Part shown: positions 8,275 to 34,758 of the stretch, piece by piece
Layout: every line of letters starts with the position of its first letter
How positions within the stretch are numbered: the first letter of the stretch is position 1
From: Bacteroidetes bacterium UBA5697
GTDB lineage: Bacteria; Bacteroidota; Bacteroidia; B-17B0; Aurantibacillaceae
NCBI GenBank assembly: GCA_002420145.1
Contig: DIHL01000021.1
Span: 13,112-77,111 of the forward strand
Length of the DNA stretch: 64,000 nucleotides
Direction: 5' to 3'
Made by a program: the position numbers and the translations under genes
Notes under the pieces: generated by a model
Told to the model about the DNA's origin: nothing
What the model saw: only the letters and a program-made list of their open reading frames with translations
Databases searched by the model: none

Positions 8275-9447
8275 ATGAAGCGTCATAAAATTTTACTATT
8301 AGGTTCTGGTGAATTAGGAAAAGAAGTTACAATTGCTTTACAAAGATTAGGTCAATATGTTGTAGCTGTAGATTCATACAAAGATGCGCCTGCTATGCAA
8401 GTTGCTCATGAGTTTGAGGTCATTAATATGCTAGATGGAGATGCTTTAGATGCCGTAGTTGCAAAACATAATCCAGATTTAATAGTTCCGGAAATTGAAG
8501 CCATCAGAACAGAACGTTTTTATGATTATGAAAAACAAGGAATAACTGTTGTCCCAAGTGCTAAAGCTGCTAACTTCACCATGAATCGTAAAGCTATTAG
8601 AGATTTAGCAAGTAAAGAATTAGGCTTAAGAACGGCTAATTATTTATACGCAACCACTTTAGAAGATTTTAAAAAAGCAGTTGCTGTTATTGGAATTCCA
8701 TGTGTGGTAAAACCTTTAATGAGTAGCAGCGGAAAAGGACAAAGTATTATAAAAACAGAACAAGACGTTGAAAAATCTTGGAACTATGCTATGGAAGGTT
8801 CTCGTGGCGATTATAAAGAAGTGATTGTAGAAGAGTTTATAAAATTTAATTCTGAAATCACTTTATTAACCGTTACTCAAAAAAATGGTCATACTTTATT
8901 TTGCCCGCCAATTGGCCACCGACAAGAACGCGGTGATTATCAAGAAAGTTGGCAACCTTGTGCTGTAAGTGATACTGATTTAAAAGAAGCGCAAGATATG
9001 GCAGCTAAGGTAACCAAAGCATTAAGCGGTGCTGGTTTATGGGGTGTTGAATTTTTCTTAACAGATAAAGGCATTTATTTTTCTGAATTATCTCCTCGTC
9101 CACATGATACAGGAATGGTGACATTAGCAAATACACAAAATTTAAGCGAATTTGAATTGCATGCTCGTGCAATTATTGGCTTTCCTATTCCTCAAATACA
9201 ATTACAACAACATGGCGCATCTGCTGTTTTATTAGCGAGTGCAGAAAGTACATCCTATCATTTTACTGGAGTAACCGACGTTTTAAGTAATCCTAATACA
9301 GATGTTCGTTTGTTTGGAAAGCCTACTACTCGTCCGTATAGAAGAATGGGAGTTGTATTAACATATGATAATTTACAATCAGATGTAAATGCCGTGAAAC
9401 AAAGAGCTATAGATTTATCAAAACAAATTTCAATCATTAACAACTAA
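8275..9447 (+). CDS. purT: Formate-dependent phosphoribosylglycinamide formyltransferase (GAR transformylase 2)
   Basis: 390 aa ATP-grasp protein. It starts [14 protein letters not shown], and [10 protein letters not shown] and the overall sequence match my memory of PurT. Confidence 0.88.
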
Positions 9448-9992
9448 TGAAATTAAATTTTCTCATAGCTTTTGTATTACTGAACCTCAATTTATTTTCT
9501 CAACAAATAAACTTTGCTGACCATTTAAAAAAAACAGCCATTGCAAAATTACAAAGTGGCGATTCTCTGGTTTATTACCAGTGCCATGTAGATAGTGCTA
9601 GTCAAGAAATTACAACATCTAACGGTAAAAAAATAAAAACAAAAAAGAAACGAATTACCTTAACGGAAAAGTTTGTGATTTACAAAACAGATACAGTCTA
9701 TCATTGCAAATATTACAACTCATCCATCACAAACTATCCTAACAAAAAATTTCCTTATTTAACTTTAAAAGAAGTTGCTAATTGGGAATTTGAATTAAAA
9801 GAACAAAAACAATTAACTCATACCGAAATATTGATGTTTGCCTTGTTAGAAACAAAGACTCACGCTATTACTCATTACGAACTAAACATAAATAAAACTT
9901 GTCCTAACGAAATTATTATAAAAGGCAAACATATCAATGAGCAATTTATTGTTGAGGGAAATTATATCCTCAGTAAATCATTAAACTATTAA
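9447..9992 (+). CDS. Hypothetical secreted protein
   Basis: 181-aa ORF with a signal-like N-terminus. Its start overlaps the purT stop (TAATG). Confidence 0.5.
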   Translation: MKLNFLIAFVLLNLNLFSQQINFADHLKKTAIAKLQSGDSLVYYQCHVDSASQEITTSNGKKIKTKKKRITLTEKFVIYKTDTVYHCKYYNSSITNYPNKKFPYLTLKEVANWEFELKEQKQLTHTEILMFALLETKTHAITHYELNINKTCPNEIIIKGKHINEQFIVEGNYILSKSLNY

Positions 9993-12909: not shown

Positions 12910-13668
12910 ATGACAACACAAGACGCATTATTTCAATATACACTTCGATTAGGCGATACTAATTTAATTTTAGGTCAGCGCTTAAGTGAGTGGACTGGTC
13001 ATGGACCATTTTTAGAAGAAGACTTAGCATTAACTAATATAGCATTAGATATTACTGGTACTGCAAAATCATTATTAGAATACGCAGCTAGCATTGAAGG
13101 TAAAGGAAGAACAGAAGATGATTTAGCCTATTTTAGAAACGATAGACAATATTTTAATGCTCAAATTACGGAACAACCAAACGGCGATTATGCTAGAACG
13201 ATTGTTCGTCAAGCGATCATAGATTGCTTTGATTTTTATTTTTATAATGAATTAGCAAAAAGTAAAGATGAAACTTTAGCTGGCATTGCTCAAAAATCAA
13301 TCAAAGAAGTCACTTATCATTTACGTCATACATCATCTTGGGTAGAACGTTTTGGAGATGGCACAGAAGAAAGTCATAACAAAGCTCAAACAGCTGTAAA
13401 CGAATTATGGCAATATACTGGAGAGTTATTTGAAATGAATGAAGTGGATGCTGTTTTAATAAAAGAAGGCATTGCTGTTGATTTAAATATCGTGAAAGCA
13501 AAGTGGGAAAAACATATTACTGAATTATTAGAAAAATCTACTTTAACAAAACCAGAAAATGTATTCATGCAAACTGGTAGTCGTAAAGGAATTCATACAG
13601 AACATTTAGCGTATATCTTAGCAGAAATGCAAGCATTGCCTCGTATGTATCCTGATGCAAAATGGTAA
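12910..13668 (+). CDS. paaC: 1,2-phenylacetyl-CoA epoxidase subunit C
   Basis: 252 aa counted from MTTQDALFQYTLRLGDTNLILGQRLSEW, which matches PaaC length and its N-terminus. The 30 upstream codons in the track (MLKQVQHD...) are encoded by intergenic repeat units. Confidence 0.85.
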   Translation: MTTQDALFQYTLRLGDTNLILGQRLSEWTGHGPFLEEDLALTNIALDITGTAKSLLEYAASIEGKGRTEDDLAYFRNDRQYFNAQITEQPNGDYARTIVRQAIIDCFDFYFYNELAKSKDETLAGIAQKSIKEVTYHLRHTSSWVERFGDGTEESHNKAQTAVNELWQYTGELFEMNEVDAVLIKEGIAVDLNIVKAKWEKHITELLEKSTLTKPENVFMQTGSRKGIHTEHLAYILAEMQALPRMYPDAKW

Positions 13669-13721
13669 AATCAAAGTAGTTTTAATAAGAAGTTAATCAT
13701 TTAATACTAAAACAATATACC

Positions 13722-14069
13722 ATGAAACATTTTTTATTAATTCTTTTTTCGTTTTTTACTTTAGCAATTTATTCTCAGGTTGCGCCTACTCCAAAAATAA
13801 AAATTGCCAGATCGCAATTTACAAAAGCAAAAACGATACGCGAAATCCTTCCGTCATTTCCAAAAAATTGTCCTATTAGTGAATATAGATTTGCAATAGA
13901 AACACCACAATTAAAAAAATCAATTACAATAAAAAATAATAAAATTACCTCAGACCTTAAATCAATTGTTAAAAGCATGAAGGCTGGACAAAAATTTTAT
14001 ATCGAAAACATCAAATCAAATTGTAAAAGTCCATTTAAAACTAAACATATATTCGTTATTACCAAATGA
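13722..14069 (+). CDS. Small secreted protein of unknown function
   Basis: 115 aa with a signal peptide (LAIYSQ). Weak similarity to the next ORF. Inserted between paaC and paaD. Confidence 0.55.
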   Translation: MKHFLLILFSFFTLAIYSQVAPTPKIKIARSQFTKAKTIREILPSFPKNCPISEYRFAIETPQLKKSITIKNNKITSDLKSIVKSMKAGQKFYIENIKSNCKSPFKTKHIFVITK

Positions 14070-26961: not shown

Positions 26962-27046
26962 GGAGAAATGGCAGAGTGGTCGATTGCGGCAGTCTTGAAA
27001 ACTGTTGAACCGTGAGGTTCCTGGGGTTCGAATCCCTATTTCTCCG
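26962..27046 (+). tRNA. tRNA-Ser (anticodon UGA)
   Basis: Folded by hand. Acceptor GGAGAAA/TTTCTCC, D-stem GCAG/TTGC, anticodon stem GCAGT/ACTGT with loop CT-TGA-AA. Long variable arm GAACC-gtga-GGTTC. T-arm TGGGG-TTCGAAT-CCCTA. Discriminator G. Confidence 0.92.
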
Positions 27047-27050
27047 CTGA
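26986..27050 (+). repeat. attL: 65-bp direct repeat (3' 61 nt of tRNA-Ser plus CTGA)
   Basis: Letter-for-letter identical to 33531-33595. Confidence 0.9.
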
Positions 27051-27057
27051 ATACTCT

Positions 27058-27091
27058 AAACCCCTAGTAAATACTGGGGGTTTTGTTTTTT
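27058..27091 (+). terminator. Terminator-like hairpin after the intact tRNA-Ser (element-borne)
   Basis: AACCCC-(11 nt)-GGGGTT followed by TTGTTTTTT. Confidence 0.55.
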
Positions 27092-27100
27092 ACTACCCTT

Positions 27101-27173
27101 TAGGTGTCGCTAAAATGCACCTCAAAAGACACCATTGCGACACCTATTGATGTATAAAAAGTGGTGTCGCTAA
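27101..27173. promoter_or_regulatory. Putative integrase arm-type sites (TAGGTGTCG / GGTGTCGCTAA, two direct and one inverted)
   Basis: GGTGTCGCTAA occurs at 27103 and 27163. CGACACCTA (inverted) occurs at 27138. The same 9-mer recurs at the other end of the element (33470). Confidence 0.55.
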
Positions 27174-27208
27174 GCTCAGCATAAACTAATTTGTAAACTG
27201 AATTTGTT

Positions 27209-28426
27209 ATGCTTGATCATCTCATTACGCACTTCTACTTGCCTAAAAACAAGAGACTTAAATCTGGTGAAGTTCCTGTTTATTGCAGAATTACATTAAA
27301 TGGAAACCGTGCTACTTTTAGTACAGGCATTTATGTTTATGAAGATTGTTGGAACGCTAAAATCAAACAGGTACACCCAACAGATGCATCAGCGCATTTG
27401 GTTAATCCACGGCTTTTTAAAATTCAGGAGAAAGTGCAGCAAACCTACTTTAAGCTAGAGAGCTTGAATAAAGAGATAACTGCAGCTACACTGGTAGACA
27501 ATTTACTGAACAGAAAGAAAAAAGAAGAGAAAGCAAGAAGCCTGTTTGCACTCTTTGAGAATCATAACAAGAAAGTAAAATCACTTGTGCCTGCAGAGTA
27601 TGCACCTGGTACTTATGAAAGATACTGCACCAGCTTAAAACATATAAGGGATTTTGTAAAGATCAAGTACAAGGCAAATGATTATGCTCTTGTTGATGTA
27701 AACCATGAATTCATAACTGAGTTTGACTACTACCTAAGAGCAACAAGGAAGTGCAACAATAACAGTACGGTGAAATACCTAAAAAACTTTAAGAAGATTA
27801 TACGTATTGCACTTGCAAATAATTGGATTGAGAAAGACCCTTTTGTCAATTACAAAAACAAGCTGGAAAAAGTTGATAGAGGTTACCTAACTGTTGATGA
27901 ACTAAACAAGTTGTGCCAAAAACATTTTACTATCATCCGGCTTGAATTAGTGAAGGATTTATTTGTCTTCCAATGCTTCACAGGTCTTGCTTACGTCGAT
28001 ACTCAAAAACTAACAGAGGAGCACTTGGTTAAAGATGAAAATGGAATAATGTGGATTAGAACTAGGAGAAAAAAAACTGATATTGCAATAAATATTCCAT
28101 TACTGCCTAAGGCAGCTGAAATAATAAATAGGTATAAAGGCTCTATCAAAAATGGTCAACTGTTACCAAAACTAAGCAACCAAAAGATGAATGCCTACTT
28201 AAAAGAGATTGCTGACTTATGTGGTATTGAGAAAAATTTAAGTAGCCATTTGGCCCGCCATACATTTGCCACAGTAGTAACTCTTGCCAACGGAGTAAGT
28301 ATCGAATCCGTTAGCAAAATGCTTGGTCATACTAATCTCAATACAACCAAGATTTACGCACGCATGCTTGATAGCAGGGTTTTGGAAGAGATGCAATTAC
28401 TTACAAAGAAGTTGCAGGATAAATAA
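27209..28426 (+). CDS. int: Tyrosine-type site-specific integrase (Bacteroidota type with N-terminal arm-binding domain)
   Basis: 405 aa. The C-terminal catalytic region reads HLARHTFATVV...LGHTNLNTTKIYAR. Confidence 0.9.
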   Translation: MLDHLITHFYLPKNKRLKSGEVPVYCRITLNGNRATFSTGIYVYEDCWNAKIKQVHPTDASAHLVNPRLFKIQEKVQQTYFKLESLNKEITAATLVDNLLNRKKKEEKARSLFALFENHNKKVKSLVPAEYAPGTYERYCTSLKHIRDFVKIKYKANDYALVDVNHEFITEFDYYLRATRKCNNNSTVKYLKNFKKIIRIALANNWIEKDPFVNYKNKLEKVDRGYLTVDELNKLCQKHFTIIRLELVKDLFVFQCFTGLAYVDTQKLTEEHLVKDENGIMWIRTRRKKTDIAINIPLLPKAAEIINRYKGSIKNGQLLPKLSNQKMNAYLKEIADLCGIEKNLSSHLARHTFATVVTLANGVSIESVSKMLGHTNLNTTKIYARMLDSRVLEEMQLLTKKLQDK

Positions 28427-28429
28427 TTG

Positions 28430-28474
28430 TGCAGGAGTGTTTATTAGCATGTAAACACCTCCTGCATTTTTTTT
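28430..28474 (+). terminator. Rho-independent terminator after int
   Basis: TGCAGGAGTGTTTA...TAAACACCTCCTGCA (one bulge) followed by T8. Confidence 0.8.
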
Positions 28475-28780
28475 AAGTAAGTAAACAAGAAAGATTTAAA
28501 CTTCATGCATTTACTTCATTACATAGCTAGTTTTAAACATTAAAAGTTTATGCGGATAAAAAAGTTGAGCGTGTAATCCTATGCTAGTACTCCACTATTT
28601 CATAGTCCCCCTAGTTAATACAAAAGGGTGTACCCCCCTCGGTGATTTAAATTAGCTGAACTCAATTCATGGTAAATCTAACATGAATTTTTTCTGGCAA
28701 AAAACAAAGTCTTTTTTTCTTCTGCCATCGCAAAAATCTTCCCACCTATTTCTTAAACATCTATCGTGTGATTAAAAACT

Positions 28781-29236
28781 ATGGAAAGCACATCACACTT
28801 TATTAATGAGTTAGCTATAACATATTCACGCAAGGAGATAAGCCACAACTCTATTAAAAACTCTAATGCTGTATATCAACTTATAAAAGATATATACAGC
28901 AACACTCAATCTGAAATTGAACTCAAGGAGTACTTCTTCATGATCCTTCTCAACCGTGCTAACAAAGTTATTGGCTACTATAAACTTTCTGAAGGAGGCA
29001 TATCAGGTACTGTTGTTGACCTGCGCTTGGCTTTCGGAACAGCTTTAAAGGGTCTAGCATCAGGCATTATAATGGCGCACAACCATCCTTCAGGTAACCT
29101 TTGTCCTTCTGAAGAAGACAAGCGCCTCACTAAAAAGTTTGTTGAAGCAGGTAAACTACTTGACATCGCTGTGCTAGATCATTTGATTGTAACTAACGAT
29201 GGCTATTACTCATTTGCAGATGAGGGCTTAATTTAA
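28781..29236 (+). CDS. RadC-like JAB/MPN domain protein
   Basis: 151 aa with the JAMM motif AHNHPSGNLCPSEEDKRLTKK. Confidence 0.85.
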   Translation: MESTSHFINELAITYSRKEISHNSIKNSNAVYQLIKDIYSNTQSEIELKEYFFMILLNRANKVIGYYKLSEGGISGTVVDLRLAFGTALKGLASGIIMAHNHPSGNLCPSEEDKRLTKKFVEAGKLLDIAVLDHLIVTNDGYYSFADEGLI

Positions 29237-29317
29237 AGCACAAGGCACACATGTGCTTTGTAAAAGCTATTTCTTAAACATCAATGGTGCTTGTATTAAC
29301 CTTAAAACTTATAAATC

Positions 29318-30214
29318 ATGAACAAAATTAACAAGGCAGCAAGGAACCGCTGCAAAATCAAAATGGCTGTACAAGGAGCTTCAGGTTCAGGCAAAACTTA
29401 TTCTGCATTGTTACTTGCATATGGTCTTACGCAAGACTGGTCAAAAGTTGTTGTCATAGATAGCGAGAACGGCTCAGCTAATCTTTATGCAGAACTTGGA
29501 GATTATTCTGTATTAAATCTTGCAGCACCGTACACACCAGAAGCCTATTCAGAAGCAATAGATTTAGCAGCTAAAAATGGTTTTGAATGTATAATCATAG
29601 ATAGCCTATCTCATGAGTGGTCAGGGCAAGGAGGTGTATTAGATATACACAGTAACATACCCGGGAACTCCTTCACTGCTTGGGCAAAAGTCACGCCACG
29701 GCATAATGCTTTTGTACAGAAAATCCTGCAAACTGATTTACACATTATCTCTACAATGCGTAGTAAAACAGAGTATGCTATGTCGGAGAAAAATGGTAAG
29801 CAAGTTCCAGAGAAGCTTGGCTTGAAAGCTGTGCAGCGTGAGGATACTGAGTACGAATTTACCATTGTGTTTGAGCTCAATCAAAGACATCAGGCAACAG
29901 TTAGTAAAGACCGCACTGGTTTATTCCGTAACAAGCCTGAGCTAACACTAACTGCTGATGTAGGAAAAGTAATAGCAGACTGGTGTAATATCAGCACAAT
30001 AAAAGCTAATCCTGAAATTGTGGCGCAGAAGAAAGAAGTACCTCAGGATGATTTTGTAACACGCATTAATCAGTGTGCAACAATGGAGGACTTAATAAGC
30101 TTATTCAACAGTAATCCGGCTCAACAACAACAGCACCGAGATAACTTTATCTCACGAAGAAATCACATCAATGTTCAATCTAAAAACTTTTTAAACAATG
30201 GAGTTCATCATTAA
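29318..30214 (+). CDS. RecA-fold P-loop ATPase, AAA_24 / phage Sak4-like
   Basis: Walker A is VQGASGSGKTYSAL and Walker B is CIIIDSLSHEW. Size and layout match phage AAA_24 proteins. Confidence 0.7.
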   Translation: MNKINKAARNRCKIKMAVQGASGSGKTYSALLLAYGLTQDWSKVVVIDSENGSANLYAELGDYSVLNLAAPYTPEAYSEAIDLAAKNGFECIIIDSLSHEWSGQGGVLDIHSNIPGNSFTAWAKVTPRHNAFVQKILQTDLHIISTMRSKTEYAMSEKNGKQVPEKLGLKAVQREDTEYEFTIVFELNQRHQATVSKDRTGLFRNKPELTLTADVGKVIADWCNISTIKANPEIVAQKKEVPQDDFVTRINQCATMEDLISLFNSNPAQQQQHRDNFISRRNHINVQSKNFLNNGVHH

Positions 30215-31196
30215 CAACCAAGAAGTGCTGGCGCAGTTGCCGGCACTTCAACCAAACGGAATAGGTATCTCATCTAGTAGTCAACCGTTCATTGAGGCTA
30301 ATACCATTCAAATGCCTGTTCAAGAAATGAAAGACCAACACATCATTCCCGTTTGGGCATCAAGTAATGAGCCGCTGATTAGTCACTCGGAGTTCATAGA
30401 AGCTACTTGGGAGCAGGTGCATAAACAATTTAGGAATGAGACCATTCTTAAACCCAATATTAGAGTAAGTCATCCTATAAAAGGAAGAATCCCGGAAGCC
30501 AAGCACAAAGCGGCAAAAGACTTAGAACCTTGGGAGCAAACAATATACTATGAACGTATGATGTTTGTAATAGAGTTGCCAAGCATAAGAGATGAAGTGA
30601 ATGGCAATTTACTATCATTAACAATCGGTGGAGTGAAGTCCTACAGTTTGGATAACCTTTACAGCAAAAGACCAAGCGGAGATCAACACTTTCAACTGTT
30701 TATCGGCTTTCAAAATAAAGTCTGCTGTAACCTTTGTGTATCAACGGATGGTTTTAAACATGAACTGGGAATCAAATCAGCTAGTCAGTTAAAGTACGCT
30801 GTGGAAAATCTGATTAACCAGTACAATGCCAGTAAGCATCTTAACAGGATGAAGTCTATGACCAATATGGAACTAATGGAATCAGAGTTTGCGCAAGTGA
30901 TTGGAAGAAGCAGAATGTATAAGCACCTGCCTGAGTATTCGCGTAAAGACATCCAACCCATGCTATTCGGTGACCAACAAATTAGTACTGTTGTACTGGA
31001 CTATTACAAGGATGCAAACTTTGGAACTGAAATCGGTGGAAGTATAAGTACATGGCAGTTCTACAACTTACTTACAGGAGCAAACAAGTCAACCTACATC
31101 GACAGCTTCCTGGTAAGAGGAGTAAATGCCACAGACTTTACTGCTGAAATCATCCAACACAAGATGGGGACAAAGCGAAGTTGGTTTATGGGTTAA
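30198..31196 (+). CDS. Conserved mobile-element protein, DUF3871/DUF932-like
   Basis: 332 aa. FIEANT, RVSHPIKGR, YYERMMF, GGVKSY..NLYSK and FIGFQNKVCCNLCVSTDG resemble my memory of DUF3871 proteins of Bacteroidota. It overlaps the upstream gene by 17 nt. Confidence 0.45.
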   Translation: MEFIINNQEVLAQLPALQPNGIGISSSSQPFIEANTIQMPVQEMKDQHIIPVWASSNEPLISHSEFIEATWEQVHKQFRNETILKPNIRVSHPIKGRIPEAKHKAAKDLEPWEQTIYYERMMFVIELPSIRDEVNGNLLSLTIGGVKSYSLDNLYSKRPSGDQHFQLFIGFQNKVCCNLCVSTDGFKHELGIKSASQLKYAVENLINQYNASKHLNRMKSMTNMELMESEFAQVIGRSRMYKHLPEYSRKDIQPMLFGDQQISTVVLDYYKDANFGTEIGGSISTWQFYNLLTGANKSTYIDSFLVRGVNATDFTAEIIQHKMGTKRSWFMG

Positions 31197-31675
31197 GCAA
31201 GAGCCTGGGAGAAATCCTGGGCTTTATATTACCTTTTAATTTGTCCTTGTTTTACAAAAGCTCATGCTGGAAGTTTACTACAAGAAAATAACTAGGTAGG
31301 GAAAAGGTAGATGTTGATAAAACTTGCACCTTACACATATTAACATTTTTCAGCCTAAAATGTCAATATTATTTTTTGGTCGGGATTGAAAGATGAATTA
31401 ATTTTGTAAAAGTACAGCGCAGTACTACCTTCTGCAGAAGGAACATATCTTCTCCTTAAGGCATTAAGGAGTCAATTTTGAAAGCGGATTAGTAATAATC
31501 TGAGTTAGCTAAATCTAGCAAAGTCGTAAGGCTTGATGTATAAAGTAACGGTTGTATATATATTATACAGATAAACTGCTTTATATATGTCTGTTAAACA
31601 ACAAGTTATTCTTAACCATTTTGGAAGTTGTGCAGCTGAAATTGCACCAACTTCCAAATTTAAAAAAACAAAGAC

Positions 31676-32137
31676 ATGAGTAATTATTCATTACCCAAAA
31701 GCGGGACTGTGTTTATGCCTGTGGCAAGATTTCAACCAATTATCAGTTATGACTTTAATGGTAATCCTTCTGTATACAAAAATGATGTGGACTTTAAAAA
31801 AGTTGGGCTAAGTGATGACTTTTTGAAAAACTTAATGAGCAACATTTCATTAACGGATATTGATATCCGGATTATGTTGTATATCATGCATAATTTACAA
31901 AGAGATTCTGACGAGGTGGTGTTAAATCCTACCATTATTAAAAGATATATTAACTGGGGGCACAGTTCAATAAGTGCATCCCTGATTAGACTTTGTAATG
32001 CAGGTTATATTATGCCTATAACAGGGAGAGGATCTGGTAGATGCAAATATCAGGTGAATGTATTAAATATGTTTTATGGCAACAGGATTGAGTTTCTGGA
32101 AAATATTGACCCAAAGTTAATACAGAGGGTTATATAA
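31676..32137 (+). CDS. Small protein with probable winged-helix DNA-binding domain (regulator or replication initiator)
   Basis: 153 aa. LTDIDIRIMLYIMHNL...SSISASLIRLCNAGYIMP looks like a wHTH. It is preceded by a 14-bp-stem hairpin. Confidence 0.4.
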   Translation: MSNYSLPKSGTVFMPVARFQPIISYDFNGNPSVYKNDVDFKKVGLSDDFLKNLMSNISLTDIDIRIMLYIMHNLQRDSDEVVLNPTIIKRYINWGHSSISASLIRLCNAGYIMPITGRGSGRCKYQVNVLNMFYGNRIEFLENIDPKLIQRVI

Positions 32138-32217
32138 AATCTGAAACATCAACTTGTGTTTATAGCCAGTTAAGGAATTTAGGTTAATCTTGAATATATT
32201 TTACATAAATTAGCCTA

Positions 32218-33360
32218 ATGGATCAAGGTTTAAAACAGAACGGTTTTTATTATGCTAATTTTCTTAAATCTGTTGATGGAGAAAATAGACTAACCTTCCT
32301 TGTTGTGTTCAGAGTAGGTGATTACTTATGTATGGATATTACTCCATCAGAGGAATCGGTAGTAGTTGATCAAGGTTTAATTGAGCACATCAAGGAGTGG
32401 AAGTCTTTGATTGTTGAAGCAATTAAAGATGGAAGCATTGATTCTGAAGAAGCTAAAGAGAAGTTTGCAAAATGCGAGCAATTAAGTACGGGGGTGCTTG
32501 AAGGTGTTTTTAAAGCAGGTAGCTTGTATCAGAAATTAACACTCACGTCAGCATTCAATAAAATTTCCGCAAGCCTTGAATCAAAAGGTTTTAGACCATT
32601 GCTTGGTAAGGAGGTCGTCAATACAATTTTCTCTGGTCTATTGTTGGATTTTCAGGAGACTGAAATACTTAATTATAAAACCATAGTTGAAAAGCTAAGC
32701 CCTAAAAATACCCAAGCTGAGTTAGCTAAACCAACTAATCAATTTGAGAAAAATGCAACGGAGTCTTTTTTTGAAAAGTATAGCACATATATATTACCCA
32801 GTCTAATTGTTGGCATGCTGATTCTACTATTTGTTTATTTAATCTTCTCATCAAAATCTAGTAAGTATAGTGACAATGATTACGCAAAAGCGGCAGCAAT
32901 AGCTGATTCAGTAGTTCAAGACTTAGTGTTAAATCAAGATTCCATTATTCAGGCAAGTAAGTATTATGAAGACTCAATTGCTGCAGAAGCAAATAAAGCA
33001 AGGGAAAGAATTTTAGGAGAACAAGAGGCAAGAAAAGCTGAAATGAGAAAGACAAGTTCGTATATGGAGGAGTATTCAGAGGATTTTCCATTTGAATACC
33101 ATGTTCCAAGTTGTCCAAATCAGGCTGAAACTAGTCTCCCTTCAGGAAAATGTTGGTTAGTGCTTTACTATGCTAAGCCAGGTAACCAAAATTGGCAAGA
33201 AGTAGGAGGAACTATTGTAGGTGTAAAAGCTGGAATTGATAATACGTTTCACTTTTTTGGCAAGAAGGGATGGAAATATGCATATTCCTGGGACGCGGGA
33301 AATTCCAGACCAATAAAACTTAAGCCTATAAACGTAAAGCAAACTTGGAGTGCGCAATAA
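32218..33360 (+). CDS. Single-pass membrane protein of unknown function (element cargo)
   Basis: 380 aa. It has one hydrophobic helix (YILPSLIVGMLILLFVYLIF), a coiled-coil-like stretch and a ~100-aa C-terminal domain with two Cys. Confidence 0.6.
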   Translation: MDQGLKQNGFYYANFLKSVDGENRLTFLVVFRVGDYLCMDITPSEESVVVDQGLIEHIKEWKSLIVEAIKDGSIDSEEAKEKFAKCEQLSTGVLEGVFKAGSLYQKLTLTSAFNKISASLESKGFRPLLGKEVVNTIFSGLLLDFQETEILNYKTIVEKLSPKNTQAELAKPTNQFEKNATESFFEKYSTYILPSLIVGMLILLFVYLIFSSKSSKYSDNDYAKAAAIADSVVQDLVLNQDSIIQASKYYEDSIAAEANKARERILGEQEARKAEMRKTSSYMEEYSEDFPFEYHVPSCPNQAETSLPSGKCWLVLYYAKPGNQNWQEVGGTIVGVKAGIDNTFHFFGKKGWKYAYSWDAGNSRPIKLKPINVKQTWSAQ

Positions 33361-33398
33361 ATTATTTACTAGAAACAAATTGTGCAAGTTAATAGTTC

Positions 33399-33406
33399 TA
33401 TATTTG
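33399..33406 (+). promoter_or_regulatory. Outward-facing -7 box TAtaTTTG at the right end of the element
   Basis: Exact TAnnTTTG match, with TTG at 33380-33382. It points towards attR, and no ORF follows inside the element. Confidence 0.45.
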
Positions 33407-33469
33407 CAGCAATCAGGAGGAAGAAGGTCTTTCTCCTGAAAAGAAATTGCTGAGCTAAAGGCACCAAAT

Positions 33470-33499
33470 CGACACCTAGCATGCTTAAAAACTGGTGTC
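33470..33499. promoter_or_regulatory. Right-end arm-type sites (CGACACCTA, GGTGTC)
   Basis: CGACACCTA at 33470-33478 is identical to 27138-27146. GGTGTC occurs at 33494-33499. Confidence 0.45.
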
Positions 33500-33530
33500 T
33501 TTTGGAGGGTACTGGGGAATAGTAGATTTT

Positions 33531-33595
33531 GCGGCAGTCTTGAAAACTGTTGAACCGTGAGGTTCCTGGGGTTCGAATCCCTATTTCTCCGCTGA
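33531..33595 (+). repeat. attR: 65-bp direct repeat (tRNA-Ser 3' fragment, not a functional tRNA)
   Basis: Identical to 26986-27050. It lacks the acceptor 5' strand and the D-arm. Confidence 0.9.
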
Positions 33596-33602
33596 TAAAT
33601 GT

Positions 33603-33629
33603 AAAAAGCGCCCTTGAGGCGCTTTTTTA
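33603..33629 (+). terminator. Rho-independent terminator (probably the original tRNA-Ser terminator)
   Basis: AGCGCC-cttga-GGCGCT followed by TTTTTT. Confidence 0.75.
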
Positions 33630-33852
33630 TTTTCCGAAATGTCCGAAAACTTGTTTTCAAGGACATAAAGGGAAATAAAAAAACAGATGCGAAGGATTTG
33701 GCTTTTTACATTATGACTCTGGGAGCTTTGGGGATCAGCGAAGCTAATCCTTCATTTAAATCGTGCGTCAAAGATGTGGAAAAATAAAAAGAATCCCATT
33801 GCACGGGATGCTTTTTACCCTATGACTCTGAAAGTATAGGGGATCAAAAAAT

Positions 33853-34242
33853 TTAATCCCTCCCTCCTCTAGCAATAATTCTTTTACGATGCTTTGTCCC
33901 CCATTTATGTAATTCCATAATTAATGGTTTTAATGTTTTGCCATAAGTTGTTAATTCATACTCCACAGTAACTGGAGATGTATCATAAACTTTTCTACTC
34001 GCTAATTCGTTTATTTCAAGCTCTTTTAATTCTTTCGATAACATCTTTGGTGTTAATCCTGTGATTTCTCTTTGAATTTGTTTAAATCGTTTTTTACCAA
34101 ATGTAAGAGATAGAATAATTTGCAGTTTCCATTTTCCACTTAAAATATCTAAAGCATCTTTTACTGGAAGTAATTGCTTAGTGCACTCTCCTGTTGAAAG
34201 ATGATTGGGACATTTTCGTTTATCGTTATCGGTAGTTTCCAT
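33853..34242 (-). CDS. HxlR-family winged-helix transcriptional regulator
   Basis: CP....C...L....DILSGKWKLQIILSL...RFKQIQREI..LTPKMLSKELKELE is typical of HxlR. I place the start at METTDND because a TAnnTTTG box overlaps the upstream ATG. Confidence 0.8.
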   Translation of the reverse strand: METTDNDKRKCPNHLSTGECTKQLLPVKDALDILSGKWKLQIILSLTFGKKRFKQIQREITGLTPKMLSKELKELEINELASRKVYDTSPVTVEYELTTYGKTLKPLIMELHKWGTKHRKRIIARGGRD

Positions 34243-34261
34243 TTGATATAAAATTATAATA

Positions 34262-34269
34262 CAAATATA
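34262..34269 (-). promoter_or_regulatory. -7 box TAtaTTTG for the HxlR gene
   Basis: Exact match on the minus strand, 19 nt upstream of ATG 34242. Confidence 0.45.
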
Positions 34270-34392
34270 CATTAGTATAAAGTATCTTTTTTATACTGCT
34301 TTCCTAGAGTATACCGATATCCTTTAGGAAAGTGATACCTTTTGTATATCCATTCTCCATAGTTTTGCTTTCTAATCTATAAAAACAAACGT

Positions 34393-34758
34393 ATGTCAAC
34401 AAAAACAAAACGAATCATTTCCATTGTACTAATGGTCATTCCTTCACTCATACTTATAATGAGCGCAGTAATGAAATTAATTGGAGCAGAACAAGTAGTA
34501 ACAGGTTTAACTAAAATAGGACTAGGCAACTATATTAAATCACTAGGCATTATTGAGTTAGTCTCCGTTGCACTATTTATATTTCCAAAAACTCATAAAA
34601 TTGGATTTTTATTAATTTGTAGCTACTTAGGTGGTGCACTTTCAATTGAATTGGCATCCGCGCAACCACCGTCAGCTGCCATTTTCTTATGTATTATATG
34701 GATTTCTGTTTTCTTAAAAGATAAAATGATGTTCTTAAGCTCTTCTGAAAATAAATAA
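34393..34758 (+). CDS. DoxX-like small integral membrane protein
   Basis: 121 aa with 3-4 hydrophobic helices. It is divergent from an HxlR gene, a common pairing. Confidence 0.55.
   Translation: MSTKTKRIISIVLMVIPSLILIMSAVMKLIGAEQVVTGLTKIGLGNYIKSLGIIELVSVALFIFPKTHKIGFLLICSYLGGALSIELASAQPPSAAIFLCIIWISVFLKDKMMFLSSSENK

Follow-up and report, generated by a model that had tools for sequence, protein, structure and literature searches.

How does a block of genes that carries no transfer functions of its own come to lie, sharply bounded, in the 3′ part of a tRNA gene, and to what kind of element does it belong? The question is raised by a locus in Bacteroidetes bacterium UBA5697 (GenBank assembly GCA_002420145.1, contig DIHL01000021.1), of which we analyzed a stretch of 64,000 nucleotides (positions 13,112 to 77,111 of the forward strand; hereafter, the window). 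A first-pass annotation, made from the sequence alone, had described a compact element at a tRNA-Ser(UGA) gene in the window and proposed it as a candidate satellite-like or defense-type island. We conclude, with a probability of roughly 0.6, that it is an intact non-autonomous integrative island, the smallest found in a Bacteroidota family, that spreads by hitch-hiking. In the mechanism that we propose, an IntDOT-type integrase would integrate a circle of ~6.5 kb within the 3′ portion of the tRNA-Ser(UGA) gene, an event that would duplicate 67 nt, regenerate the tRNA, and supply it with a new terminator; after excision, an operon of radC, AAA_24, and DUF3871 genes would process, multiply, or establish the DNA, and the island would then pass between cells in a vehicle that it does not itself encode.

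An empty tRNA-Ser site, for which the first-pass annotation had recommended a search, was found in a close relative, L152 (GCA_030153465.1). There, the gene for a homologue (91% identical) of the GWxTD protein encoded to the left of the tRNA gene in the window lies 470 bp from a histidine kinase gene, and in the window this kinase gene sits to the right of the island. The 470-bp interval holds the same tRNA-Ser gene followed directly by TAGATGTAAAAAGCGCCCTTGTGGCGCTTTTTT, which is the sequence, with its terminator, that stands 3′ of the right-hand repeat (attR) in the window. Because the L152 sequence aligns on its left side with the flank of the left-hand repeat (attL) and on its right side with that of attR, with no island present, the L152 locus is an unoccupied attB, and the insertion in the window is true and precise. 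Since the tRNA is followed at the empty site by the attR-side terminator, the attL-side one being absent there, the terminator hairpin at 27058-27083 (an 11-bp stem and then a T tract) came with the element.

The boundaries themselves agree with this comparison (Table 1). The complete tRNA-Ser(UGA) gene described earlier at 26962-27046 was recovered by both ARAGORN and Rfam, and attL contains the 3′ 64 nt of it. The direct repeat first called as 65/65 from position 26986 is indeed exact, but its length had been underestimated by 2 nt: it runs from 26984 and is identical in the two copies at 67/67 positions, the distance between the copies being 6,545 bp. A terminator scan bore out the statement that each att copy is followed by its own terminator, the attR-side hairpin lying at 33603-33627, and the arm-type repeats noted at both ends were found as well: the motif GGTGTCGC occurs exactly three times across the 64 kb, always in 27103-27170, between attL and the integrase start, and a copy with one mismatch lies 53 nt ahead of attR. 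The higher GC content reported inside the element also held, at 36.6%, compared with 32.2% to its left and 31.1% to its right. ARAGORN additionally called a tRNA-Arg(gcg) at 33504-33592, which we rejected as an artefact composed of the partial tRNA-Ser copy at attR and the element sequence upstream of it. Six open reading frames (ORFs), all on the plus strand, occupy the att-to-att interval, and Pfam and PHROG matches agree with the families first assigned to them. The integrase retains every residue that is invariant in the integrases of nine relatives (R287, K289, R350, G373-H374, and Y383). We conclude that the element is intact, because its att repeats match at 67/67 positions, these integrase residues are kept, the arm-type sites form a cluster, and two other proteins have undamaged JAB and Walker motifs, respectively. 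The catalytic residues of a tyrosine recombinase, att repeats with an intact tRNA, and, in a related genome, an empty attB, by which a site-specific integrative island is recognized, are all present, and the locus is a precise, site-specific, integrase-mediated insertion at tRNA-Ser.

To place the island among its relatives, we collected 80 genome loci spread over the Bacteroidota; Chitinophagaceae, Spirosomataceae, Sphingobacteriia, Flavobacteriia, and metagenome-assembled genomes (MAGs) of Bacteroidia are among their sources. In 74 of these 80 loci and in 69 of 80 metagenome loci, the DUF3871 gene is directly preceded by the AAA_24 gene. In eight close relatives, whose DUF3871 proteins are 57 to 87% identical to that of the window, the order is tRNA, integrase, sometimes a further gene, RadC, AAA_24, and DUF3871, followed by unrelated genes. 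A search for the module at other tRNAs had been recommended, and it was found at five: tRNA-Arg(tct) (L149/L165; 7.7 kb, with a 69-nt exact repeat), tRNA-Asn (L008, 9.9 kb; L086, 10.4 kb), tRNA-Met (L009; 9.9 kb, without RadC), tRNA-Ala (L090; 12.2 kb), and tRNA-Val (L092 and L006; extent not delimited). The islands at tRNA-Arg, tRNA-Asn, tRNA-Met, and tRNA-Ala each lie between a tRNA gene and an exact repeat, and these sister elements, like the empty site, support the mobility of the island. More distant members reach 13 to 18 kb, and the island in the window is the smallest family member that we found. When the ORFs of 12 delimited elements were clustered with the six proteins of the island, the recurrent clusters were the integrase, AAA_24, DUF3871, and RadC (the last in 7/13 elements), and everything else was element specific. 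In a distant subgroup (5/13), two small ORFs flank the AAA_24-DUF3871 pair in place of RadC; a Pfam search of the small conserved accessory ORFs of these distant relatives gave no match. Two integrase lineages only ~22% identical to each other are joined to the same backbone, and the parts are therefore modular. In a gut Bacteroides-type variant, the RadC gene stands after the AAA_24-DUF3871 pair, not before it; this block is found in a scaffold from human feces (Mexico) deposited in GenBank as “Bacteriophage sp.” (L001; MT839478.1, 1-4253), where the AAA_24, DUF3871, and RadC proteins are ~49%, 50%, and 40% identical to ours and are preceded by ORFs of 352 and 89 aa without a Pfam match.

The variable part of the related islands, as judged from sequence matches, is mostly antiphage defense. 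It includes a complete type I restriction-modification (R-M) system, an MmeI-type IIG R-M protein, Mrr, an N6 methylase, HNH/NUMOD4 endonucleases, an AAA_13 ATPase, and AAA_15/AAA_21 proteins matching the PtuA, GajA, and AriA models (Septu/Gabija-like); among the cargo proteins of these relatives there are also two with matches to primase/helicase PHROGs. The family is large and coherent, with a conserved backbone and swappable cargo, and it moves defense genes. The label “defense-type” given earlier fits these relatives, but it does not extend to the copy in the window, whose six proteins gave no defense match with the PADLOC models, only an insignificant P-loop match.

The six proteins matched no relaxase, type IV secretion system (T4SS), capsid, terminase, or transposase model, and a PHROG scan of them revealed no capsid, terminase, portal, tail, or lysis gene, in keeping with the original description of an intact, bounded element without virion, conjugation, or transposition genes. 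A nucleotide comparison of the element with phages and plasmids returned only trivial matches. For the proteins of the delimited relatives and 146 neighbor ORFs from ten other loci, no conjugation or virion family was among the 25 commonest families listed, a summary in which a lone weak relaxase match in one relative could be hidden; the 146 ORFs, which lie within 10 kb of the module, are chromosomal genes together with R-M and abortive infection (Abi) genes. The small size and the lack of transfer genes would also be expected of an immobile remnant left by deletion from a larger prophage or conjugative element, an origin that we find scarcely credible in view of the exact 67-nt att repeats, the intact integrase and arm sites, the exact empty site in a close relative, and the recurrence of the compact architecture at six kinds of tRNA gene across different genomes. 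A prophage or integrative conjugative element (ICE) remnant was accordingly rejected, no structural or Tra genes having been seen in the island, in the 13 delimited elements, or in 10 further neighborhoods (25 commonest families listed for the relatives).

The backbone proteins suggest what the island might do once excised. The RadC-like protein has an intact HxHx7SxxD metal site (HNHPSGNLCPSEED, from the translation) and is 46% identical over 103 aa to LfgB/YfjY of the Escherichia coli CP4-57 element. The AAA_24 ATPase carries the Walker A motif GASGSGKT and the Walker B motif IIIDS; it shares 45 to 47% identity with proteins from phages of Pseudomonas, Acinetobacter, and Erwinia and 37% with ORF8 of phi105, and its match to the Sak4 family phrog_124 reaches only E = 3e-6, over residues 3 to 99. 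Its closest phage relatives are located in recombination/replication modules, and the phi105 homologue lies between Gam and the single-stranded DNA-binding protein (SSB)/primase genes of such a module; a Pfam scan of the six proteins found no SSB gene in the element. For the DUF3871 protein, homologues of which number >7,000 in the protein collection searched, an AlphaFold2 (AF2) model with a predicted local distance difference test (pLDDT) score of 84 gave 21 Foldseek matches in BFVD at E ≤ 1e-3 (probability, 1.0; template modeling [TM] score, 0.36 to 0.66), and the named ones include phage DUF932, TIGR03299, and DUF945 proteins, themselves predicted structures. In terms of these models, DUF3871 has a DUF932-like fold. 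The earlier assignment to DUF3871/DUF932 was therefore right as regards the Pfam family and, by model, the fold, but not at the level of profiles, since a comparison of DUF3871 with E. coli YfjQ (DUF932) by hhalign gave a probability of 0.2, that is, no profile similarity. No PDB relative of DUF3871 was found by sequence or fold, the top matches being noise (TM, ~0.1). We infer that the three genes form a recombination/replication-type module borrowed from phages. A 16-nt motif, CTATTTCTTAAACATC, is a candidate promoter or operator of this backbone operon, as judged from its placement: the window holds just two exact copies of it (91% identity over 23 nt), one ending ~20 nt ahead of the radC start codon and the other 36 nt ahead of that of AAA_24. 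A sigma-70 promoter scan gave a result not above chance, the model being unsuited to Bacteroidota.

The same three genes could instead be payload, with a defense or antidefense function, in an island consisting of an integrase plus defense genes. ATPase and peptidase modules are typical of defense systems, the genes are located in defense-rich islands, and the RadC-like LfgB of E. coli has been reported to have protease activity toward an antitoxin (PMC10846083). We nevertheless consider this quite improbable, for the trio has no PADLOC match, it is invariant whereas the recognized defense systems vary, and its closest AAA_24 relatives reside in phage recombination/replication modules.

Downstream of the backbone, the 479-nt noncoding region described earlier as hairpin rich folds better than 100 of 100 shuffled sequences (z = −4.2). 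A scan against Rfam assigned it to no family, and it had no nucleotide match in any related locus; it is a candidate origin or regulatory (or transfer origin [oriT]) region. The gene that follows encodes p153, a protein of 153 aa from a small family (26 representatives found); AF2 models it as a winged helix (pLDDT, 91), and its fold matches, to MarR, SarA, and TubR, are generic. Its relatives gave weak Pfam matches to RepL (8/25; best E = 3e-6), Rep3_N (5/25), and Phage_rep_O (3/25), and the MarR and TrmB models were matched also. The RepL-like character that the first-pass annotation raised can thus be seen weakly in some relatives of p153, but not in p153 itself. We read p153 as a mobile-element DNA-binding protein, which could be either an initiator or a regulator, and together with the 479-nt region it would make up an origin or control module. 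Neither p153 nor the last protein of the island, p380, is conserved in the related islands compared.

If the hairpin region were instead an oriT used by a co-resident conjugative element, the island would be a relaxase-less integrative mobilizable element (IME), and the trio would serve establishment or antidefense in the recipient. The strong hairpin structure of the region is consistent with this, as is the co-occurrence of RadC-like JAB and DUF932 proteins in islands of other phyla, such as CP4-57 of E. coli with yfjQ and lfgB/yfjY. NBU1 and NBU2 offer a precedent among the Bacteroidota, being ~10 kb in size, inserted at tRNA 3′ ends, and helper dependent; NBU2 uses a tRNA-Ser site and relies on conjugative transposon (CTn) helpers. 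These elements, however, carry an oriT and genes for a Mob relaxase and a primase-like protein, and no relaxase or primase was matched in the island, which has no Mob gene; to our knowledge, all characterized Bacteroides mobilizable elements encode a relaxase. Moreover, no conjugation family was recurrent in the 10-kb surroundings of the module at the 10 loci or in the 13 delimited elements (25 commonest families listed), and the 479-nt region is not conserved in any relative. Mobilization through oriT alone is therefore unlikely.

Since it has no transfer genes, we infer that the island spreads by hitch-hiking, and the favored vehicle would be the particles of a helper phage, in the manner of satellites, tycheposons, or virion-encapsidated integrative mobile elements (VEIMEs). 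We rank phage particles first, ahead of mobilization by a co-resident conjugative element via the oriT-like region and, last, vesicles, because of the phage-type ATPase, the phage-like fold of DUF3871, the defense cargo of the relatives, a size like that of VEIMEs, and the block in the fecal “Bacteriophage sp.” scaffold. A stricter form of this idea is that the island is a true phage satellite, in which a helper phage induces excision, AAA_24 and DUF3871 drive replication or concatemer formation, and the multimers are packaged in helper capsids. Its size and absence of structural genes match those of VEIMEs (PMC9618062), the ATPase is of phage type and the DUF3871 fold matches phage proteins, homologous blocks occur in 45 IMG/VR contigs as well as in the fecal scaffold, and the relatives carry antiphage cargo. 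We regard this form as possible but doubtful: the six proteins gave no Pfam or PHROG match to terS, to capsid-remodeling or -redirecting genes, to AlpA/Stl-type regulators, or to a primase (cos and pac sites were not searched for), the IMG/VR and virome loci are fragments or of the integrated type with att ends, none of them circular or concatemeric, and no helper phage was identified. Going further, the backbone might define an unrecognized, Bacteroidota-wide class of phage-dependent satellites in which a translationally coupled pair of AAA_24 and DUF932-fold proteins makes capsid-length multimers of 6- to 15-kb islands, a proposal more likely to be wrong than right by a wide measure; if it did hold, such islands would be a main vehicle for the exchange of defense systems in the phylum.

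Several observations weigh against the reading of a hitch-hiking island with a backbone for its excised phase. A same-strand integrase of the tested lineages lies within 7 kb in only 20 of the 70 loci with enough upstream sequence, and the AAA_24-DUF3871 pair is therefore broader than, and not confined to, this type of island. The element contains no primase, helicase, or recognized initiator, and no excisionase or AlpA-type regulator was recognized in it; the RepL-like signal of the p153 relatives is below threshold, and the p153 fold is that of a generic winged helix-turn-helix protein. A literature search on DUF3871 and DUF932 gave nothing functional. Finally, the 80 metagenome and 45 IMG/VR loci include no family member on a circular or concatemeric contig, and the sole contig with direct terminal repeats (DTRs), L127, ends in att sequence. 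L127 is an IMG/VR “viral” contig of 13.7 kb, and because its 83-nt terminal repeat (1-83 and 13661-13743) consists of a tRNA 3′ end plus a terminator, it is another island of this family, bounded by att sites and classed as a virus. A Logan contig of 6,538 bp (SRR1302010) was considered as an excised circle and rejected: it comprises the unique segment plus 30 nt of the repeat at each end, and because its ends match a k = 31 graph break, it is silent on excision.

The earlier statement that nothing equivalent has been described in this phylum is too strong as regards the concept, since by analogy the island is conceptually of the same kind as tycheposons and VEIMEs, but it stands for the backbone: a literature search for a RadC/AAA_24 island in Bacteroidota found no description of it. 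Tycheposons of Prochlorococcus and other marine bacteria are likewise compact and cargo carrying; a tyrosine recombinase inserts them into the 3′ portion of tRNA genes, tRNA-Ser(tga) among them, with partial-tRNA repeats as the result. Which tRNA is used depends on their integrase lineage; they lack conjugation and virion genes and are dispersed by hitch-hiking in vesicles or phage particles (bioRxiv 10.1101/2020.12.28.424599). Of their hallmarks, which are an integrase, an excisionase, and primase/helicase-type replication genes, the last two were not matched in the island, which has instead RadC, AAA_24, and DUF3871, a host of another phylum, and an IntDOT-type integrase with an Arm-DNA-bind_5 domain. 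VEIMEs are small, integrase bearing, and without capsid genes; some are integrated in Flavobacteria, some carry RecA-like recombinases, R-M, or Abi genes, and their defining trait is packaging in virions as concatemers (PMC9618062). Our island, in contrast, is known from integrated sequence alone, and the terms “RadC,” “AAA,” and “DUF” are absent from the main text of the VEIME paper. Phage-inducible chromosomal islands (PICIs), capsid-forming PICIs (cfPICIs), P4-like elements, PICI-like elements (PLEs), and phage-inducible chromosomal minimalist islands (PICMIs) resemble the island in having an integrase at one end, a one-directional layout, a small size, in some cases a tRNA site, and interference or defense cargo, but their helper-sensing regulator, primase-helicase, terS, and capsid-size or capsid genes were not recognized in it, and none of their hallmark sets is complete there. 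The ssrA-integrated CP4-57 of E. coli K-12 (intA, alpA, yfjI, abpAB, rnlAB, yfjQ, lfgA, and lfgB) is similarly bounded by an integrase at a small-RNA gene and combines a DUF932 protein (YfjQ) and a RadC-like protein (LfgB/YfjY) with antiphage cargo; it differs in being 22 kb long, with a P4-type integrase, AlpA, and no AAA_24, and any kinship of YfjQ with DUF3871 would lie at the level of the fold only. The category of the element, a tRNA-integrated genomic island, is ordinary, but its backbone is not.

Bacteroidota dominate gut, freshwater, and soil communities, and the known routes by which their defense genes move are large conjugative transposons and mobilizable elements that encode Mob proteins. 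The family described here is a much smaller vehicle for such genes, 6.5 to 12 kb where it could be delimited in the close clade, and it occupies many tRNA genes. It also gives a genomic context to the orphan family DUF3871 and, by predicted fold, to DUF932; we hypothesize that these proteins, with AAA_24 and RadC, serve the post-excision life of hitch-hiking islands, for which the element in the window, with six genes and an exact empty site, provides a minimal natural example.

Table 1. Features of the island and its boundaries (positions are those of the window)
Feature	Position	Strand	Basis
tRNA-Ser(UGA), complete	26962..27047	+	ARAGORN (anticodon tga); Rfam tRNA (55 bits) gives 26962-27046
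attL, 67-nt exact direct repeat (tRNA 3′ part + CTGA)	26984..27050	+	Repeat finding, exact length computed
Terminator brought by the element, serving the regenerated tRNA-Ser	27058..27093	+	Terminator scan
Three arm-type-like sites, (T)AGGTGTCGC	27103-27110, 27137-27144, 27163-27170 (cluster 27103..27170)	+, −, +	Direct reading
IntDOT-type tyrosine integrase, 405 aa	27209..28426	+	Pfam Arm-DNA-bind_5, Phage_int_SAM_5, Phage_integrase; phrog_1, E 9e-38
Intergenic region: hairpin and T run right after the int stop codon; first CTATTTCTTAAACATC copy (28746-28761)	28427..28780	+	Sequence, repeat and motif search
RadC-like JAB metallopeptidase, 151 aa	28781..29236	+	Pfam RadC (PF04002), E 8e-38
Second exact CTATTTCTTAAACATC copy, upstream of the AAA_24 gene	29267..29282	+	Repeat and motif search
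Phage-type AAA_24 ATPase, 298 aa	29318..30214	+	Pfam AAA_24 (PF13479), E 6e-18; phrog_1366, E 2e-83
DUF3871 protein, 332 aa, 17-nt overlap with the AAA_24 gene	30198..31196	+	Pfam DUF3871, E 1e-112
Hairpin-rich noncoding region, 479 nt	31197..31675	+	DNA fold, inverted repeats
p153, predicted winged-helix DNA-binding protein, 153 aa	31676..32137	+	Weak HTH_27 match, E 0.014; AF2 model
p380, membrane protein with one predicted span, 380 aa, putative cargo	32218..33360	+	No family match
Arm-type-like site TAGGTGTCGA, one mismatch, attR side	33469..33476	−	Motif search and sequence
attR, second 67-nt copy (partial tRNA-Ser)	33529..33595	+	Repeat finding, exact length computed
Original chromosomal tRNA-Ser terminator, now 3′ of attR	33603..33637	+	Terminator scan
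Predicted attP junction of the excised circle: GGGGAATAGTAGATT - 67-nt core TTGCGGCAG...CTCCGCTGA - ATACTCTAAACCCCTAG			
Predicted repaired attB: full tRNA-Ser, then TAAATGTAAAAAGCGCCCTTGAGG			

The two proteins encoded downstream of the backbone have few relatives. For p380, which would be cargo, we found only 2 homologues among 5.8e9 proteins. A homologue (L156/L157, ~8570-9730) is encoded by the final gene of an island adjoining metG, whose other genes include a type I R-M system and genes for a trypsin-like protease and a 580-aa protein; it is placed at the island edge, as p380 is in the window. A p153 homologue (55% identical) is encoded on another integrase-bearing metagenome contig of ~6 kb, L161 (1-5999; 5,999 bp), whose two ends share a 114-nt direct repeat. 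This contig also encodes an IntDOT-type integrase and small ORFs, without RadC, AAA_24, or DUF3871; it may be another type of tiny integrative or circular element.

The gene content next to the tRNA-Ser gene differs among the three genomes compared. Between attR and the histidine kinase gene, the window carries an HxlR-like gene (139 aa, minus strand) and a 121-aa ORF (33853-34758), both absent from L152, and in L153, an 83% relative, genes for GyrI-like, DinB, WYL, and DUF5655 proteins adjoin the tRNA instead; the flank is therefore a hotspot that varies irrespective of the island. Just to the right of attR, at 33701-33753 and 33810-33862, lie two units of ~53 nt with the pattern GCTTTTTACmyTATGACTCTG...GGGGATCA...TAATCC. 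Their 21-nt core has no further match in the 64 kb (≤3 mismatches), and the units have no Rfam match. The units could be a small repeat element or small RNA (sRNA), and L152 carries two similar ones in the same place.

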